Positions 1,471 to 7,763 of a stretch of DNA of 9,412 bases are shown here, piece after piece. The DNA is taken from the IMG/VR virus record IMGVR_UViG_2606217104_000008. One strand, 5' to 3'. The stretch is from a virus (taxonomy: Duplodnaviria > Heunggongvirae > Uroviricota > Caudoviricetes). The translations under genes and the position numbers were made by a program. Below the pieces are notes generated by a model. That model saw only the letters and a program-made list of their open reading frames with translations, was not told the DNA's origin and searched no databases. Each line of letters opens with the position of its first letter. Position 1 is the first letter of the stretch.

Positions 1471-2528
1471 TTTCCGCCTCCTGCATCCCGTCCACGTTTT
1501 GCAGCCAGGGTCCAGCCTGATGAATGAGCTTCTCCGGGTTTATCACCGGTCATACTGTTGCAGTGCCACAGCGAGCCCCCCCACGTCACCGTATCGCCGG
1601 GGTGGTAGGTTTCACCGGCTCTGAACACACCGCGGTAGAGCATCACCGGCAGGGAAAATGTTTTTTCCGTACACTGGCCACTGCTCTGCCGGATCACCAC
1701 AGAGAACAACCGCTCACCCGTCATACTGACGTCAATATCCGCCACCCCGTCAACCAGGCATTCCCATCCCCGCATCCCGTGCGTTTTTTCATACGCCCGC
1801 CAGAGTCCTCCAAGGTGTGTGGCATACGTGCCCCGGGGAAAGGATTTTTGATCGTCAATGGCGGGGAGCACTTCCAGTGCCGTGGCATCACGCCCGTCCT
1901 GCGGAGCCGGCAGGGCATTCACCGCCTCCAGAACCGCCTTCCGCAGAACATCGGGATCGTAGTCACGACCATCACGCGGAACGGGAATATGGCTTACAGC
2001 CTCTTTCACCATCTGCTCAAGCATCGGACGCACATCATCGGGGGTGATACTTTTGCCGTCCGCCGGTACCGGAATTCTCCCGACCGCATCATTCACCGCC
2101 TGCTTCAGTACTTCCGGATCGTAATCACGACCATCGCGGGGAGCTGGAATATGGCCCACTGCCTCCGCCACCATCTGCTCAAGCATCGGACGCACATCAT
2201 CCGGGGTGAGACTTTTGCCGTCCGCCGGTACCGGAATATTCGCAACCGCATCATTCACCGCCTGCTGCAGTACATCCGGATCATAATCACGACCATCACG
2301 CGGTACCGAAATGGCCCCCACAGCGTCATCCACCATCGCCTGCAGAACCGGACGCACCTCATCCACCGTCACATGCTTCTGTAATACCGCCGACAGGGAA
2401 GTCAGTTTCTCTTCAAACGCTTGTGCCTGCGAGGCCATCTTCCCCTCAAATGTGCGCTGTAAATCCGCCAGCACCGTGGAGAATTCTTCACCCAGCGCAC
2501 GGATAATGGACAGTTCACGCTCTGTCAT
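1467..2528 (-). CDS. Repeat-containing phage structural protein of unknown function: coiled-coil-like N-terminus, three tandem ~54-aa repeats, aromatic CBM5/12-like C-terminal motif; possibly a head decoration or fibre protein
   Basis: 353-aa ORF, ATGA-coupled to portal upstream (2525-2528) and connector downstream (1467-1470). Repeats such as DVRPMLEQMVAEAVGHIPAPRDGRDYDPEVLKQAVNDAVGRIPVPADGKSITPD occur three times. C-terminus YHPGDTVTWGGSLWHCNSMTGDKPGEAHSSGWTL resembles the Y..GD.V.Y.G..Y.C...GW pattern of chitin-binding-type modules. The antisense plus-strand ORF (1524-2384) is His/Arg-rich junk. Confidence 0.6.
   Translation of the reverse strand: MTERELSIIRALGEEFSTVLADLQRTFEGKMASQAQAFEEKLTSLSAVLQKHVTVDEVRPVLQAMVDDAVGAISVPRDGRDYDPDVLQQAVNDAVANIPVPADGKSLTPDDVRPMLEQMVAEAVGHIPAPRDGRDYDPEVLKQAVNDAVGRIPVPADGKSITPDDVRPMLEQMVKEAVSHIPVPRDGRDYDPDVLRKAVLEAVNALPAPQDGRDATALEVLPAIDDQKSFPRGTYATHLGGLWRAYEKTHGMRGWECLVDGVADIDVSMTGERLFSVVIRQSSGQCTEKTFSLPVMLYRGVFRAGETYHPGDTVTWGGSLWHCNSMTGDKPGEAHSSGWTLAAKRGRDAGGGK
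1918..2366 (-). repeat. Intragenic tandem DNA repeat, about 3 x 162 bp (each with an internal ~81-bp sub-period), encoding the protein repeats of the 353-aa gene
   Basis: Near-identical segments recur with a 162-bp period, e.g. tccggatcgtaatcacgaccatcgcgggg at about 2113 and tccggatcataatcacgaccatcacgcgg at about 2275, and ccatctgctcaagcatcggacgcacatcatc at 2010 and 2171. Confidence 0.8.
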
Positions 2529-3889
2529 TTTCGCAGTATCCCCCTGAACATCGCCTTCACCGCATCACGCTCTGTTTCGCTTATGGCCTTATTACCGTCA
2601 GATGCGCCCTCCTGGCGTGTGCCTGACGACGTTTTCCCGGAAGACGCGAACGGATCCTCACGGGCATCACGACGGGACAGCGCCTCCAGACTGTAGTTCT
2701 GCTGCTGAAGATACAGTGCATCACCGCCGGCAAGGGGCGGCAGGTTCTCACGTTTACGGGCCTCATTGGGCGTGAGAAGCGTATTTTTCACCGATTCACC
2801 CAGCGTTTTCATGCGACGTTCGCTGTCCATTCTCAGCAGCGTGGTGACGTCAAACTCCGTACTCTCGTTTTCCCCCGTTTCCAGCGCCTCATCCAGTAAC
2901 AGTTCAATGGACTCAATCAGCGTCTGCAGGCACTGGGAATAATACTGCTGCTCCAGCGCCTCCACGTTGTCACTGGAAGGCGGGTGGCCAACGCCAATCT
3001 TGTAGGCCGGGACACGGAACACCGAACAGACAATTTCAGCGGTCATCTTCAGTTGTTCCACCGTCTGCGCATCCACCGGTGAAAACGTCGTGGGGTTGTA
3101 TTTTGCCCCGTTGCTCAGAATGGCCGTTTTCCCCGCATTTTCGCCGGTATACCCGCTGTCCCAGTTGCTCTTCAGTTTTTTCGCATTTTCTTCCGTTATA
3201 CTGCCGGGGATCTCAATCACCCCGGACGGCCTGCCGCCATTTCTGAAAAAAGACGTCGAATTTTCCTGAATATGATGCCCCTGCGTGGCCGCCAGCCCGG
3301 CGGCATACACCGGCGGCAACCCTATAAGCGGATGAAAAAAACAGTTAAACCGGTCGTGGATCACTTCCCGGGCAGGCACCGTCACCGCCTCCGTGATCCC
3401 GCAGTTCCGGTCCGGCGTGATGCGGTAGAACACCTCGCCGTCATCCGCCACCAGAGGTTCAACCCGGCTCCAGTCCAGAATACGCAGTTCTTTGATCTGC
3501 CCCCGGGAGTTACGGATTTTCAGCACCACCGTATTGCCGTGACGCAGTTTGGCGTTCAGCCACAGTTCAAAAAACTGGATACGATTCTGCTGTGCATTGG
3601 GACGACGACAGAGACGGGCAATATCCCCCTGCCGTTTTTCACGGCGGATCCCCTGTGTATCCGTCTGCATCAGGCGCAGCCGCATTTTGGCGATATCCTG
3701 GGATATCAGCGAAATGCAAGAAAACACCGCATGAAAGGAGAGGACACTTTCCGGATCGGCTTTCACCCCCTGCTGCCAGGCGCCGGCAAAGGGCTCAGCC
3801 ACCGCCTGAAACAGGCTGGTCCAGCCCACCTCTTTTACATCACGTCCTGATTTCTGGTTTTTTCGGGTTCGCCGCAAAAGGTTCCACAT
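2525..3889 (-). CDS. Phage portal protein, HK97 family
   Basis: 454-aa ORF with portal-typical segments (SFHAVFSCISLISQDIAKMRLRL, FFRNGGRPSGVIEIPG, NGAKY, ALYLQQQNYSLEAL). ATG at 3889 is the first ATG after an in-frame TGA, with GGAG 8 nt upstream. Confidence 0.85.
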   Translation of the reverse strand: MWNLLRRTRKNQKSGRDVKEVGWTSLFQAVAEPFAGAWQQGVKADPESVLSFHAVFSCISLISQDIAKMRLRLMQTDTQGIRREKRQGDIARLCRRPNAQQNRIQFFELWLNAKLRHGNTVVLKIRNSRGQIKELRILDWSRVEPLVADDGEVFYRITPDRNCGITEAVTVPAREVIHDRFNCFFHPLIGLPPVYAAGLAATQGHHIQENSTSFFRNGGRPSGVIEIPGSITEENAKKLKSNWDSGYTGENAGKTAILSNGAKYNPTTFSPVDAQTVEQLKMTAEIVCSVFRVPAYKIGVGHPPSSDNVEALEQQYYSQCLQTLIESIELLLDEALETGENESTEFDVTTLLRMDSERRMKTLGESVKNTLLTPNEARKRENLPPLAGGDALYLQQQNYSLEALSRRDAREDPFASSGKTSSGTRQEGASDGNKAISETERDAVKAMFRGILRK

Positions 3890-4056
3890 TCGCCATGCTC
3901 CGCATCACGTTTCTTTTTCTGACCTGCCGGACGTCGCGCTGTGATGTACTCCGCCTTCCCCAGGCGAACCAGCACCTCCGCACACGGCTGTGCCACATCA
4001 CGGATATCCCCGGCCCGGGCATCATGCGTGCCCTGCAGATACTGGATTTTTGCCAT
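3835..4056 (-). CDS. Hypothetical small protein (73 aa) between the capsid and portal genes; overlaps the first 55 nt of portal in another frame
   Basis: ORF MAKIQYLQGTHDARAGDIRDVAQPCAEVLVRLGKAEYITARRP... fills the gap left between the capsid stop (4101) and portal start (3889). Codon third-position GC is about 67% with host-preferred codons. No good Shine-Dalgarno within 5-10 nt of the ATG, so it may be spurious. Confidence 0.3.
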   Translation of the reverse strand: MAKIQYLQGTHDARAGDIRDVAQPCAEVLVRLGKAEYITARRPAGQKKKRDAEHGECGTFCGEPEKTRNQDVM

Positions 4057-4100
4057 CTGTTACTGCGGGAAGCTCGCGCCTCCCGCCCTCCTCATCAGAC

Positions 4101-6038
4101 TCAGCCACCGGACGCAGTTCCGTAGTTCACACCGGTGATCACCGCCACTGCCGCAGTACGGCGACGACGCCAGTTGATCCAGCGCTCCGCACGGATGGCC
4201 ACGCTGCCGGTCTGAAACATGGAGACCAGTTCCACCGGTGACGGTGTGCTGCTGTCGCTGGTCGGTTCAGACTGCATTTCCAGTGACGCTTCACGGGACA
4301 TATCCACTGCCACACCGCCGTCATCCGCCAGATAAATATCCGGGGCATTCACCAGCACCAGCTGGTCACCCACGTACTGGGAGACAATCACCGGCAGCCC
4401 CTGGAAGGTCCCGCCCAGCAAGGTCATGTCCGGATATTCCTTCTGACCCAGCGCATTTTTACGCATGGACAGTGCCAGGGCATTGGTGCTGGACATCAGC
4501 CAGACCGCACCGGTGGGCTGCAGGTTTGCTGCCACAAACTGGCCAAACGCCGCCTCTGCATCCGCATCCGGGTTACCGGTTGATGCCGTGCCCTTCACAT
4601 CATGGGTGATGGACGCCGGGGAGACATCTGCCACTGCGGCTTTTTTCGGGTCCACAAAGTCTGTGTCCAGACGCGCCACCACCGCTTCTGCCAGCGCATT
4701 ACGGACCAGCGCATCAGCTGCCGGACTGGAAAAACGGATCAGCTCTTCCGTCAGTACCGCAATGGCCGACACCTTCGCATGACTGAAGGTGATGGACTCA
4801 AAATCAAACTTCGTCAGGGGTCTGGCCTTACCCTCCCCCACCCAGCCGGCAGCACCGCCGGACACCTGGGCATGCACGCGGATATTGAACGGCACCTGAC
4901 GAAGTGCAGGGATCCCGCCCTGACCAAATCGCCCGATAATGGTCTGCGGACGCAGGTAATCAATAAAGTCCTGTGCGTATTCCTGATATTCAGACAGGCT
5001 GCCTGCCCACTGCGGATCCGTGGTGGTCCCTGCCCCCACCGCCGATTTCAGGACATGATGCAGACGGCTGTCATCCGGATACTGACGACGGGCCACTTCC
5101 AGGGCTTCAGAGCGGACACCTTTAGCCGCGGCCAGTGATTTGGCAAAGCGGGCGAAACCAATCCCCTTCTCCAGTTTCTGCTCAACACGGATCACCGGCG
5201 CTGAAGCCACCGTGGCCACATTCCCGTTACCGGCCTGTTTCACCGGCTGTGCCGTGGCGGCCTTACTGGTTTCCAGTTCACGCAGACGCTTCAGGTGCGC
5301 ATCCACCTGACGGATTTCCGCTGCGGTGTTGTCGTAGTGCTCTTCCTCTTCCACATCCAGTGTGCGGCCTTCCTCTGCGGCTTTGTTCATGATCTCCTCA
5401 AGGGAGGCTGCCAGCGCCGCACGCTTGTTTTCAAAACTTTTAATCTGTTCACCAGTATTCATTGCTGACTTTTCCTTATGAAAAGAGGTTATTGACTGTG
5501 CCGAAGCGCCGGCAGAAGATGCGATTTTCACCACCGGTTTCCGGTTGCCGGACGCGGCAGAAAACGGGCGGTCGTAAGATTTAATGGTCCGGATGGTGCA
5601 TTCCGCATTCGCGGGCACGGTGACGGCAGACACCTCCATCAGTTCCCAGCGCAGAAAATGCAGTCCGCCTCCGTCCAGAAAGGTGTATTCATGGGGACGG
5701 AAGCCCACGGACAGCCCCCTGACCAGCCCGGTCTTAATGGCCGCCCAGACCTCATCCAGCCGGGCAGCCAGTTGCGACGGCATATCCGGTACGGGCTTCA
5801 CCAGTGTTGCCGTGATTTCCAGCCCTTCGCTGACCCGGCGCACCGTACACTGCCCCACCGGGCGGGAATGGTCATGCTGCCAGAGAAACGGGATCGCACT
5901 GCCAAACTCCGCGCCCTCCGGCTCCAGGATGTCACCATCCCGATCCGGAGAAGGCGTTGACGCAATCCCGGTGATCACCCGTTCATCCTCACTGAAGGAT
6001 TTCACCGTCAGCAGGGAACAGGCCCGTTTAAGAGTCAC
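4101..6038 (-). CDS. Prohead protease - scaffold (delta) domain - major capsid protein fusion (HK97-fold capsid with N-terminal HK97-family prohead protease)
   Basis: 645-aa ORF. N-terminus (ITGIASTPSPDRDGDILEPEGAEF...LWQHDHSRPVG) matches the HK97 prohead protease (S78/U35) pattern. The middle is charged and coiled-coil-like (EEEEHYDNTAAEIRQVDAHLKRLRELE). The C-terminal ~340 aa look like an HK97-type major capsid protein (...LVLVNAPDIYLADDGGVAVDMSREASLEM...). Start is GTG at 6038 with AGGAGG 5 nt upstream. Confidence 0.85.
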   Translation of the reverse strand: MTLKRACSLLTVKSFSEDERVITGIASTPSPDRDGDILEPEGAEFGSAIPFLWQHDHSRPVGQCTVRRVSEGLEITATLVKPVPDMPSQLAARLDEVWAAIKTGLVRGLSVGFRPHEYTFLDGGGLHFLRWELMEVSAVTVPANAECTIRTIKSYDRPFSAASGNRKPVVKIASSAGASAQSITSFHKEKSAMNTGEQIKSFENKRAALAASLEEIMNKAAEEGRTLDVEEEEHYDNTAAEIRQVDAHLKRLRELETSKAATAQPVKQAGNGNVATVASAPVIRVEQKLEKGIGFARFAKSLAAAKGVRSEALEVARRQYPDDSRLHHVLKSAVGAGTTTDPQWAGSLSEYQEYAQDFIDYLRPQTIIGRFGQGGIPALRQVPFNIRVHAQVSGGAAGWVGEGKARPLTKFDFESITFSHAKVSAIAVLTEELIRFSSPAADALVRNALAEAVVARLDTDFVDPKKAAVADVSPASITHDVKGTASTGNPDADAEAAFGQFVAANLQPTGAVWLMSSTNALALSMRKNALGQKEYPDMTLLGGTFQGLPVIVSQYVGDQLVLVNAPDIYLADDGGVAVDMSREASLEMQSEPTSDSSTPSPVELVSMFQTGSVAIRAERWINWRRRRTAAVAVITGVNYGTASGG

Positions 6039-6050
6039 ATCAGCCTCCTG

Positions 6051-6076
6051 AAAATAAAAAAACCGCCGCAGCGGTT
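6051..6076 (-). terminator. Putative intrinsic terminator or attenuator hairpin between the terminase large subunit and the capsid gene
   Basis: On the minus strand the sequence reads AACCGC-TGCG-GCGGTT (6-bp stem, 4-nt loop) followed directly by TTTTTATTTT, then the AGGAGG ribosome-binding site of the capsid gene. The stem is short, so strength is uncertain. Confidence 0.4.
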
Positions 6077-6101
6077 CGTGATGGTTACAGTGTGAACAGG
6101 G

Positions 6102-7763
6102 TTATATGAAAAAAACCTCATATTCTTTCTTTTTCGGTTCCGGGTTAAGGGACATCAGGGAGACCGCATTGAACAGCGCCATCAGCGGGTCAATTTTTCC
6201 CCGTCCACTGGCCTGTTTGGTGATAAGAATGGCGTTACCTTTAGGCTCCACCCGGGCATTGCCAACGCACCAGGCCATCAGTGGCTGATCACCATGCACC
6301 AGCACCCCTTCAGCCAGTTTGCGCTCGGTGGTTTTGATGGCCCCGCCCAGCTTCCAGCCCTGGCTTATCCCCACCACACTCTCATCGGGGATCCCGGCTT
6401 CCGCCAGTGAATCCAGAATCTGCCCCACACCTGACGGGTCAATACCGATATGATCCAGTAACTCAGCCTCATGAATACGACGCACATACTCCGCCACTTC
6501 CGCCGTGTCATCCCCGACCCGACGGACAATCGTCATGTCTCCACAGGCCACAAAATCCTGAAACCGGGATGCCTCACTCTTCCGTCTGACCACCGCGGTT
6601 TCATGCACCCAGGCATGGCCCCAGCCCAGCCATTCGCGGGTTTCCCTGTCACGGCCAGTCACGTACATTCCCAGCAGATCATCCAGGCCCCCGCCGTCAA
6701 TCCCCACCGTCACCACATCAGCGCGCTGCAGGATATCGTCCAGGCTGACGCGCCTGCCCTGCTGCTCCCAGAAATCCGCGCCCGCCCAGCGGTCAGAACG
6801 CAGGGCAAGACCGATTTCCACATTGGCGTGTTTTGACATGAAGCCACGGAATGTCTCTTCACCGGCTTCCCGGGCTTTACGATACTCCCGGTACAGAAAG
6901 GCCTCATCCACCGAATAACCGAGATTCGGGTTAACCATGGCGAGGTTTTCCATCAGCAGGTGAGCCCCGCTTTCCACCATTTCAGGAGGGTGTTCAAATA
7001 TCACCGGCAGAAAGTGCGGATCATGAATTTTGCCGTCACGGACATCCCGGGCGTACTGCAGTTTCTGTCTGAACACCCCGGCAGGCGGTTCATTCGACTG
7101 GGTGGTTGTGTACACCACAAACCCTTCCGGACGTGAAGCCAGCCCGCCGATGGCTTCACGTAGCATGTCTTCCGCTTTGTACTGCTTGCCAAACAGCCAC
7201 AGTTCATCAATCAGTGTCCCCACGGACTTGATACCGGACACCGTATTCGGATCGGCTGCCACCACCTTCAGGGTGGTGTCCGTCACCCGATGGGTGATGG
7301 TCCGGATATGTGTCTGCACCTGACAGAGGTCATCCAGATCATCGTCCCGTCGTACCATATCCCTGGCAGGGTTGAAGGCGTTAGCCGCCACCTCCACGGT
7401 CGGGGCCAGAATGGTGTAGCCCGCCGCCTGCCGCCAGTTCAGTAACAGCGCCGTCATCATGATCCCCGCGGCCAGCGTGGACTTACTGTTTTTCTTGGGG
7501 ATAAGGATAAACACTTCCTTGATATGGCGAACACCGGTCTGCGCATCGTAGGAGCCAAACAGGGCCGCCACCAGGTCAAACACCCACGGTGCACAGGACT
7601 CCCCGAATGTCGGGCTACCCGGTGCATCCACAATTCGCAGTTGTTTAAAAATCGCCAGTGCATGTGCAGCCTGGTCCGGATAAATCGGAGCCGGAATAAT
7701 CGACAGCCCCTTTTTCAGGCGCTCTGCCCAGTCCGGACATGCCGTGCTCCATACAGGTATCAT
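6102..7763 (-). CDS. Phage terminase large subunit (Terminase_1-type ATPase/nuclease)
   Basis: 553-aa ORF with a Walker-A-like segment (ILIPKKNSKSTLAAG), typical terminase size, and placement directly after the small subunit with an ATGA overlap (7760-7763). Confidence 0.9.
   Translation of the reverse strand: MIPVWSTACPDWAERLKKGLSIIPAPIYPDQAAHALAIFKQLRIVDAPGSPTFGESCAPWVFDLVAALFGSYDAQTGVRHIKEVFILIPKKNSKSTLAAGIMMTALLLNWRQAAGYTILAPTVEVAANAFNPARDMVRRDDDLDDLCQVQTHIRTITHRVTDTTLKVVAADPNTVSGIKSVGTLIDELWLFGKQYKAEDMLREAIGGLASRPEGFVVYTTTQSNEPPAGVFRQKLQYARDVRDGKIHDPHFLPVIFEHPPEMVESGAHLLMENLAMVNPNLGYSVDEAFLYREYRKAREAGEETFRGFMSKHANVEIGLALRSDRWAGADFWEQQGRRVSLDDILQRADVVTVGIDGGGLDDLLGMYVTGRDRETREWLGWGHAWVHETAVVRRKSEASRFQDFVACGDMTIVRRVGDDTAEVAEYVRRIHEAELLDHIGIDPSGVGQILDSLAEAGIPDESVVGISQGWKLGGAIKTTERKLAEGVLVHGDQPLMAWCVGNARVEPKGNAILITKQASGRGKIDPLMALFNAVSLMSLNPEPKKKEYEVFFI

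Follow-up and report, generated by a model that had tools for sequence, protein, structure and literature searches.

What does a phage make from a gene in which a prohead protease, a scaffold-like region and a capsid protein are joined in one open reading frame (ORF), and is it peculiar that the portal gene stands after such a gene and not before it? These questions are raised by a 9,412-nucleotide stretch of DNA from a virus of the Caudoviricetes (IMG/VR record IMGVR_UViG_2606217104_000008), which over its whole length is called the window below. A preliminary description had placed on its minus strand a gene for the large terminase subunit (TerL), an ORF of 645 amino acids (aa) read as a protease-capsid fusion, and an ORF of 454 aa read as the portal, and all three are present at the coordinates given there. 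It had also assumed that the fusion is made as one polypeptide. That protease, scaffold and capsid are encoded in one ORF stands; the single polypeptide as the only product is probably an incomplete account, given a conserved internal ATG preceded by a Shine-Dalgarno (SD) sequence. We consider it likely that the fusion gene yields two products, one of full length and one started within the gene, which co-assemble and are then trimmed by the protease to the mature shell protein.

The fusion protein and its putative internal start

The 645-aa protein is matched by both protease and capsid models. Peptidase_S78 (PF04586) covers aa 48–152 (2.2e-8, 34.8 bits against a cutoff of 21), and the stricter equivalog for prohead proteases, TIGR01543, scores 46.3, under its cutoff of 59. 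Phage_capsid (PF05065) covers aa 386–635 (6.9e-15, 55.6 bits, cutoff 24.2). The 385-position model TIGR01554, which includes the delta domain, reaches 81.3 bits (cutoff 27.5) over aa 204–584, and the phrog_617 family, "major head protein", spans the whole ORF at 2e-261. The 454-aa protein exceeds the cutoffs of two portal models (Table 1). Thus the concern voiced in the preliminary description, that the 645-aa protein might not be a capsid or the 454-aa protein not a portal, was not borne out by the profile searches.

Three parts can be distinguished in the fusion protein. The N-terminal one aligns with the HK97 protease gp4 (hhalign probability 95.7%, E 9e-9), H55, S110 and E135 being paired with H65, S114 and E141 of gp4, respectively. 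H65 and S114 are the catalytic residues of gp4, and the three window residues are invariant in 82 of 82 homologous protease domains. The putative self-cleavage draws its support from the invariance of H55 and S110 and from their pairing with these two residues of gp4. The AlphaFold model of this domain has a predicted local distance difference test score (pLDDT) of 70–82, and in a Foldseek search of the PDB its top seven matches were herpesvirus assemblins, with probabilities of 0.51–1.00 and weak E-values (1e-3 to 7e-2). The middle part is helical: the model contains a long hairpin formed by helices 195–222 and 229–261 (pLDDT about 71–76), and the alignment with TIGR01554 begins at aa 204, that is, at position 3 of that family model. 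As for the C-terminal part, a profile of 64 homologues retrieved the solved major capsid proteins 9d9w (5.4e-18), 9gyi (7e-13) and 8gta (1.3e-6). Positions 7–78 of this capsid profile pair with residues 4–73 of 9gyi, connecting the helical region with the N-terminal part of a head protein of known structure.

These matches support an architecture of an S78 serine protease, a helical delta- or scaffold-like domain and an HK97-fold shell. The AlphaFold2 model of the complete protein, built from a 26-sequence alignment with 73–98% identity, has a mean pLDDT of 44; it is usable only for the protease domain and the one helical hairpin, and its capsid part is uninterpretable. The comparison of the capsid profile with HK97 gp5 alone by hhalign was not significant (probability 1.3%). 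Protease-capsid fusions are already a curated class, represented by NCBIfam NF045541 ("prohead protease/major capsid protein fusion protein") and PHROG 4523 ("major head and protease protein"). The score of the window protein against NF045541 is 54.1 bits, under the cutoff of 525, which places it in another lineage of fusions.

Related loci were collected in two ways. A tblastn search with the fusion protein as the query gave matches in phages of Pseudomonas, Rhizobium, Burkholderia, Ralstonia and Moraxella, and a scan in which each bacterial species was represented by one genome gave 80 further loci at 42–81% identity, coming from the Enterobacterales, Pseudomonadales, Rhizobiales, Sphingomonadales, Burkholderiales and other orders. 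Protease and capsid form one ORF in 58 of 82 loci and two genes in the other 24.

The initiator methionine of the separate capsid genes of the Burkholderia and Moraxella phages falls exactly on Met193 of the window protein, which is conserved in the other fused genes as well. An ATG no more than four codons from this position is present in 53 of the 58 fused loci, and in 43 of these 53 (81%) a four-nucleotide SD core is situated 4–11 nucleotides upstream of it. At 723 other in-frame ATGs of the same ORFs the rate is 6.8%, and the local background, assessed at positions shifted within 90 nucleotides on either side, has a mean of 4.3% and a maximum of 23%. The strings upstream of the 53 internal ATGs are all distinct, and the SD is in codon phase 0 in 19 loci, in phase 1 in 4 and in phase 2 in 20. 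Since all three phases are used, what is conserved within this variable linker is the nucleotide element and not the amino acids that it encodes. It reads GGAGG in the Pseudomonas and AAGGAG in the Rhizobium fused genes, while in the split Burkholderia gene the stop codon of the protease lies inside the same TAAGGA element. On the capsid tree of 64 tips, at least 14 changes between the fused and split states are needed. Such frequent flips would come easily if a locus, whether fused or split, always translated the capsid protein from that protein's own start, and an indel did no more than tether or release the protease.

The proposed scheme is as follows. Translation from GTG 6038 would give the full-length 69.2-kDa form, with the protease joined covalently to a capsid subunit, whereas translation from the internal SD and ATG (Table 1) would give the 48.4-kDa scaffold-capsid form, supplying most subunits. 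Both forms would co-assemble on the portal, and by this co-assembly the tethered protease would be carried into the procapsid. Proteolysis would then remove everything N-terminal of the shell domain, that is, the protease and scaffold parts, leaving the mature shell protein.

Similar solutions are known. In the lambda C/Nu3 and herpesvirus UL26/UL26.5 pairs, the long ORF encodes the protease, and an in-frame internal start yields an abundant assembly protein without it. The window ORF likewise begins with a protease, which may be assemblin-like, and has a conserved in-frame ATG with an SD; it differs from both in that its putative nested product is the capsid protein with its delta domain and not a separate scaffold. 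By analogy with these systems, we infer that the protease may be delivered by tethering to an assembly subunit. The start codon of the full-length form is GTG in the window (6036–6038) and in phage 2851, the two sequences of E. coli type that were compared, and ATG in 56 of 57 fused relatives from other genera. A weak GTG start as a general means of down-tuning the full-length form was rejected because of this prevalence of ATG.

The alternative is that only the 645-aa protein is made, each subunit bringing its own protease and scaffold and being self-cleaved, with the internal ATG and SD as relics of a separate gene start. The ORF is uninterrupted, it has a strong SD of its own (AGGAGG) at the 5' end, annotators treat it as one protein, and with so many fused/split flips relic signals are plausible in some lineages. 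However, the SD is enriched at this very position over the local background, and it is so in a variable linker, in differing phases and over differing amino acids. Moreover, in an enterobacterial clade consisting of fused genes exclusively (15 tips, amino acid divergence up to 48%), every locus has the ATG at the aligned position; the sequence before it is AGGA or GAGGT in 13 loci and no more than AGG in two. A relic would be expected to decay, and the retention of both signals in this clade counts against the single polypeptide, which we regard as unlikely.

Several points nevertheless weigh against two products. The loci are phylogenetically related, and a binomial p-value overstates their independence. 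Given the frequent flipping, some of the SDs could be recent relics; the SD of the window itself (AAGGA at a spacing of 10) is only moderate; and a 1:1 stoichiometry of protease to capsid is physically possible. As the AlphaFold2 model is poor, the evidence for the fold of the capsid part comes from sequence profiles. A search of the literature, within the library available to it, found no precursor sizes or start sites for the 645-aa fusion family, no case of internal initiation in a protease-capsid fusion, and no mapping of virion proteins for Pankowviruses.

The portal gene and ORF353

Two genes next to the portal were overlooked in the preliminary description. One is an ORF of 73 aa between the capsid and portal genes; the other, denoted here ORF353 after its length in aa, follows the portal, and its start overlaps the portal stop codon (ATGA, 2525–2528). 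As judged from its sequence, ORF353 is a separate, translationally coupled, fibre-like gene and is not portal-like. In the encoded protein the N-terminus is helical, the middle is variable and the C-terminus is CBM5/12-like (nucleotides about 1485–1649); CBM_5_12 is matched in 28 of 64 ORF353 homologues, with the best E-value of 4.8e-9. A tandem repeat with a unit of 54 aa (162 nucleotides) occupies positions 1933–2364, where it has 2.7 copies. Alleles of E. coli differ in the number of copies, their lengths being 299, 353, 407, 461 and 515 aa, and in 15 of the 64 homologues collagen triple-helix repeats stand in place of the 54-aa ones. Many database homologues are recorded as "partial", which is consistent with assemblies breaking at the tandem repeat. 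The AlphaFold2 model of ORF353 (pLDDT 39) is unusable.

A tract of five G (AGGGGG, with the run at 2540–2544 of the minus strand) is situated 11 nucleotides before the ATG of ORF353. If it is replaced by six G, the portal and ORF353 are fused into a single protein of 778–859 aa; a 778-aa portal is present in one phage record, and phage 2851, which has G6, encodes a portal of 859 aa. Of the IMG/VR contigs, 61 carry G5 and 42 carry G6, mostly with intact ORFs. The two alleles cluster on the tree of the flanking sequence, with at least four switches between them. At that, two flank haplotypes, each identical over 607 nucleotides, occur with both G5 and G6, which points to recurrent slippage or to homopolymer sequencing errors.

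One may therefore ask whether the 454-aa and 353-aa ORFs are in fact one portal gene, either broken by a frameshift or expressed via programmed −1 frameshifting on the G-run. The Prokaryotic Genome Annotation Pipeline (PGAP) annotates them jointly as a "frameshifted" portal (one record inspected), the G6 alleles do encode a single protein, and a −1 P-site slip on G_GGG before the rare AUA codon would yield exactly the G6 product. The comparison with other species speaks otherwise. The portal and the ORF353 homologue are separate there in 72 of 73 loci, the latter being in the −1 frame relative to the portal in 40 loci and in the +1 frame in 32, and its start overlaps the portal stop or is usually only a few nucleotides from it. 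Other Enterobacteriaceae have AGAGGA, with no slippery run, where the window has AGGGGG. Furthermore, Lys8385Vzw, an induced phage, is of the split form, and the position of the run before the ORF353 ATG is that expected of an SD. A single portal gene is, in our judgement, highly improbable.

Since two ORFs are the norm in other species, the split state with translational coupling is likely to be ancestral, and the G-run is most simply explained as a putative SD of ORF353. Programmed −1 frameshifting at the run was rejected as unlikely, since the G tract lacks conservation and two separate ORFs prevail. The same data indicate that the "frameshifted pseudogene" flag arose as an artefact, a fused G6 allele having served as the reference. 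Likewise, the label "portal protein" attached to members of the ORF353 family (in the records of an Stx2a phage, IME307, RHph_X2_26 and Lys8385Vzw) appears to be an artefact derived from fused alleles. Virion-forming phages carry either allele, Lys8385Vzw the split one and phage 2851 the fused one, which suggests that ORF353 acts at the portal.

The start of the portal gene is ambiguous. It may be ATG 3889, which implies an overlap of 55 nucleotides with the 73-aa ORF, or GTG 3829, situated 6 nucleotides past the stop codon of that ORF. In distant relatives the conservation of the portal starts at residue 22, adjoining GTG 3829, and one phage record annotates a later portal start. The 73-aa ORF and its positional equivalents have no match in Pfam or NCBIfam. 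Of 83 related loci, 79 have a small ORF on the same strand in the gap that separates capsid and portal; outside the Enterobacterales, homology of these ORFs to the 73-aa one is not detectable. In Rhizobium phage RHph_X2_26 the gap between the capsid fusion and the portal contains an SGNH-hydrolase gene (L005:6032–7246), situated in the small-ORF slot of other relatives.

Order of the head genes in related phages

All long ORFs of the window are on the minus strand, in the order TerS (the small terminase subunit), TerL, the 645-aa fusion, the 73-aa ORF, portal, ORF353, and the connectors Ad1, Hc1 and a gp10-like protein. In HK97 the order is gp1 (TerS), gp2 (TerL), gp3 (portal), gp4 (protease), gp5 (capsid), Ad1, Hc1 and gp10. 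The order portal, protease, capsid, which the preliminary description had taken as canonical, is borne out by the HK97 and D3 entries in GenBank, and the window is indeed unlike these two phages, where the portal comes first. The protein families are the same as in HK97, namely portal_HK97, an S78 protease and an HK97-family capsid with an N-terminal delta-like domain, and so is the order of the downstream connectors. The differences are the portal situated after the capsid gene, the protease fused in frame to the capsid, and the presence of two extra genes, the 73-aa ORF and ORF353.

In all 83 related loci that have both genes the portal is downstream of the capsid gene, and this holds for fused and split loci alike. 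The annotated regions of four phages, of Pseudomonas, Rhizobium, Burkholderia and Moraxella, read TerS, TerL, protease/capsid, one or more small ORFs, portal. Burkholderia phage vB_FUBS1 and Moraxella phage Mcat5, at 37–43% identity, follow the window in having TerL, protease, capsid, a small ORF and the portal in this succession; unlike the window, they have separate protease and capsid genes and no homologue of ORF353. The order is thus a fixed layout of a large proteobacterial phage clade and no local rearrangement. Within the genus Detrevirus both layouts are seen: Pseudomonas phage vB_PaS_IME307 has the portal after the capsid fusion, whereas D3 has the canonical, portal-first order. This difference within one genus shows that entire head modules are exchanged as cassettes.

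That the fusion or the order is an artefact, caused by the merging of two genes through a frameshift in sequencing or assembly, or by a rearrangement peculiar to the window, agrees with the existence of relatives with separate protease and capsid genes (24 of the 82 loci), but can be regarded as already refuted by the comparative data, that is, by the identical 645-aa architecture in a large protein cluster and in several genera, by the 58 fused loci, by the same order in every one of the 83 loci, and by the fact that the module is carried by virion-forming phages (PMC7946995).

The genes described here make up the head-assembly module of a prophage that is lambdoid, long-tailed and of the Pankowvirus, or Stx-converting-phage, type. 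Identity to 25 deposited Stx1a-, Stx2a- and Stx2c-converting phages is 95–97% and extends over 97% of the window, and a match to the window is found in 2680 of 5426 complete E. coli genomes, in 544 of these over at least 80% of the window length. The 90%-identity cluster of the 645-aa protein has 9916 members, and the same architecture occurs also in Salmonella, Klebsiella, Enterobacter, Serratia and others. Phages 2851, 1717, Lys8385Vzw and WGPS6 share with the window the gene order and gene sizes (about 96% nucleotide identity over 9.1 kb), and their 645-aa capsid/protease proteins are 97–99% identical to that of the window.

The guess of the preliminary description that similar layouts exist in enterobacterial prophages was correct, the same order being found in Stx-converting phages, for example in RefSeq phage 2851 (Pankowvirus pv2851). 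The 645-aa protein of this phage is annotated as "major capsid protein; phage head maturation protease", and other records name it "major head protein/prohead protease", "capsid and scaffold", or [quoted passage not shown]. Phage 2851 differs from the window in having the G6 allele, the fused 859-aa portal and four repeat units, compared with G5, split genes and three units in the window. Lys8385Vzw, whose module is about 96% identical and in the same order, was induced and seen as a long-tailed siphovirus (PMC7946995), and the head of Pankowvirus phi330 is icosahedral and measures about 55 nm (PMC12502783). Hence the arrangement, although atypical compared with HK97, is common, conserved and already annotated; it is not new, as had been suspected. 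A literature search yielded no explicit description of this gene order.

Other features of the window and implications

The coordinates of all features are collected in Table 1. Between TerL and the capsid gene there is a terminator-like hairpin, directly followed by the strong AGGAGG SD and then by the GTG start of the fusion. It is the sole coding-strand site to emerge from the promoter and terminator scan of the window, in which the sites were no more frequent than chance. The hairpin may set the ratio of capsid to terminase expression or stabilise the transcript. Relatives have T-rich stretches at the corresponding position.

At the upstream side of the module, a plus-strand ORF (8591–9082), opposite the HNH endonuclease gene, matches phrog_1487; a YlcI/YnfO or DUF3950 protein is annotated at the corresponding spot in relatives. 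The end of the window (9130–9412, the last 280 nucleotides or so) is missing from most of the relatives of about 96% identity, and hence the source of the window differs from the listed Stx phages at that edge.

Table 1. Positions of genes, domains, residues and signals in the window, listed from the upstream end of the minus strand
Feature	Position	Strand	Basis
HNH endonuclease gene, upstream of the terminase genes	8612–8977	−	phrog_589 at 5e-43; same annotation in relatives
TerS, 187 aa	7760–8323	−	PF03592 at 1.2e-8; phrog_641 at 7e-68
TerL, 553 aa	6102–7763	−	PF03354 at 1.5e-11; PF20441 at 5e-10; phrog_9 at 5e-147
Terminator-like GC hairpin and T-run, between TerL and the capsid gene	6060–6077	−	consensus match only
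Protease / delta-scaffold-like / HK97-type capsid fusion ORF, 645 aa, 69.2 kDa, GTG start	4101–6038	−	Peptidase_S78, Phage_capsid, phrog_617, TIGR01554
Prohead protease domain, about aa 1–160	5559–6038	−	hhalign to HK97 gp4
Protease residues H55; S110; E135	5874–5876; 5709–5711; 5634–5636	−	invariant in homologues
Internal SD-like AAGGA, 10 nucleotides upstream of the internal ATG	5473–5477	−	moderate SD
Internal ATG, Met193; putative start of a 453-aa, 48.4-kDa scaffold-capsid product	5460–5462	−	aligns with separate capsid starts
Helical delta/scaffold-like domain, about aa 193–385	4884–5462	−	predicted helices, TIGR01554, 9gyi profile match
HK97-fold capsid shell domain, aa 386–645	4104–4883	−	PF05065; solved-capsid profile matches
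ORF of 73 aa, between the capsid and portal genes	3835–4056	−	phrog_829 at 8e-39; hypothetical in the annotation of relatives
Portal, 454 aa	2525–3889	−	Phage_portal (PF04860) at 6.5e-81, 272 bits, cutoff 39; portal_HK97 (TIGR01537) at 355.9 bits, cutoff 112
ORF353, 353 aa, coupled to the portal	1467–2528	−	phrog_1289 and phrog_2271
Head-tail adaptor Ad1 (gp6-like)	1144–1470	−	PF05135 and phrog_40
Head closure protein Hc1	783–1133	−	PF05521 and phrog_25
HK97 gp10-like neck/tail completion protein	340–786	−	PF04883 and phrog_5

The arrangement itself matters little, being that of a common and already annotated prophage module, and only two things go beyond the existing annotation: the proposed nested start and the proposed G-tract toggle between the portal and the fibre-like gene. 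A joint reading, in which a nested two-product gene is combined with a G5/G6 toggle switching the fibre-like gene between a free protein and a C-terminal extension of the portal, is offered tentatively, as possible rather than probable. If the fusion gene is nested, the capsid protein would always come from its own internal start, all that a single indel would determine is whether a minority of the capsid subunits carry the protease in tethered form, and this would explain the many flips between the fused and split states in the clade. If the G5/G6 toggle is real, the fibre-like protein would work attached to the portal. With the module matched in about half of the complete E. coli genomes (2680 of 5426), mislabelling of ORF353 may be common. 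For the Stx-type siphoviruses, the proposed nested start provides a testable model of maturation-protease delivery, in which the protease would be brought in by tethering to a minority of capsid subunits via nested translation.

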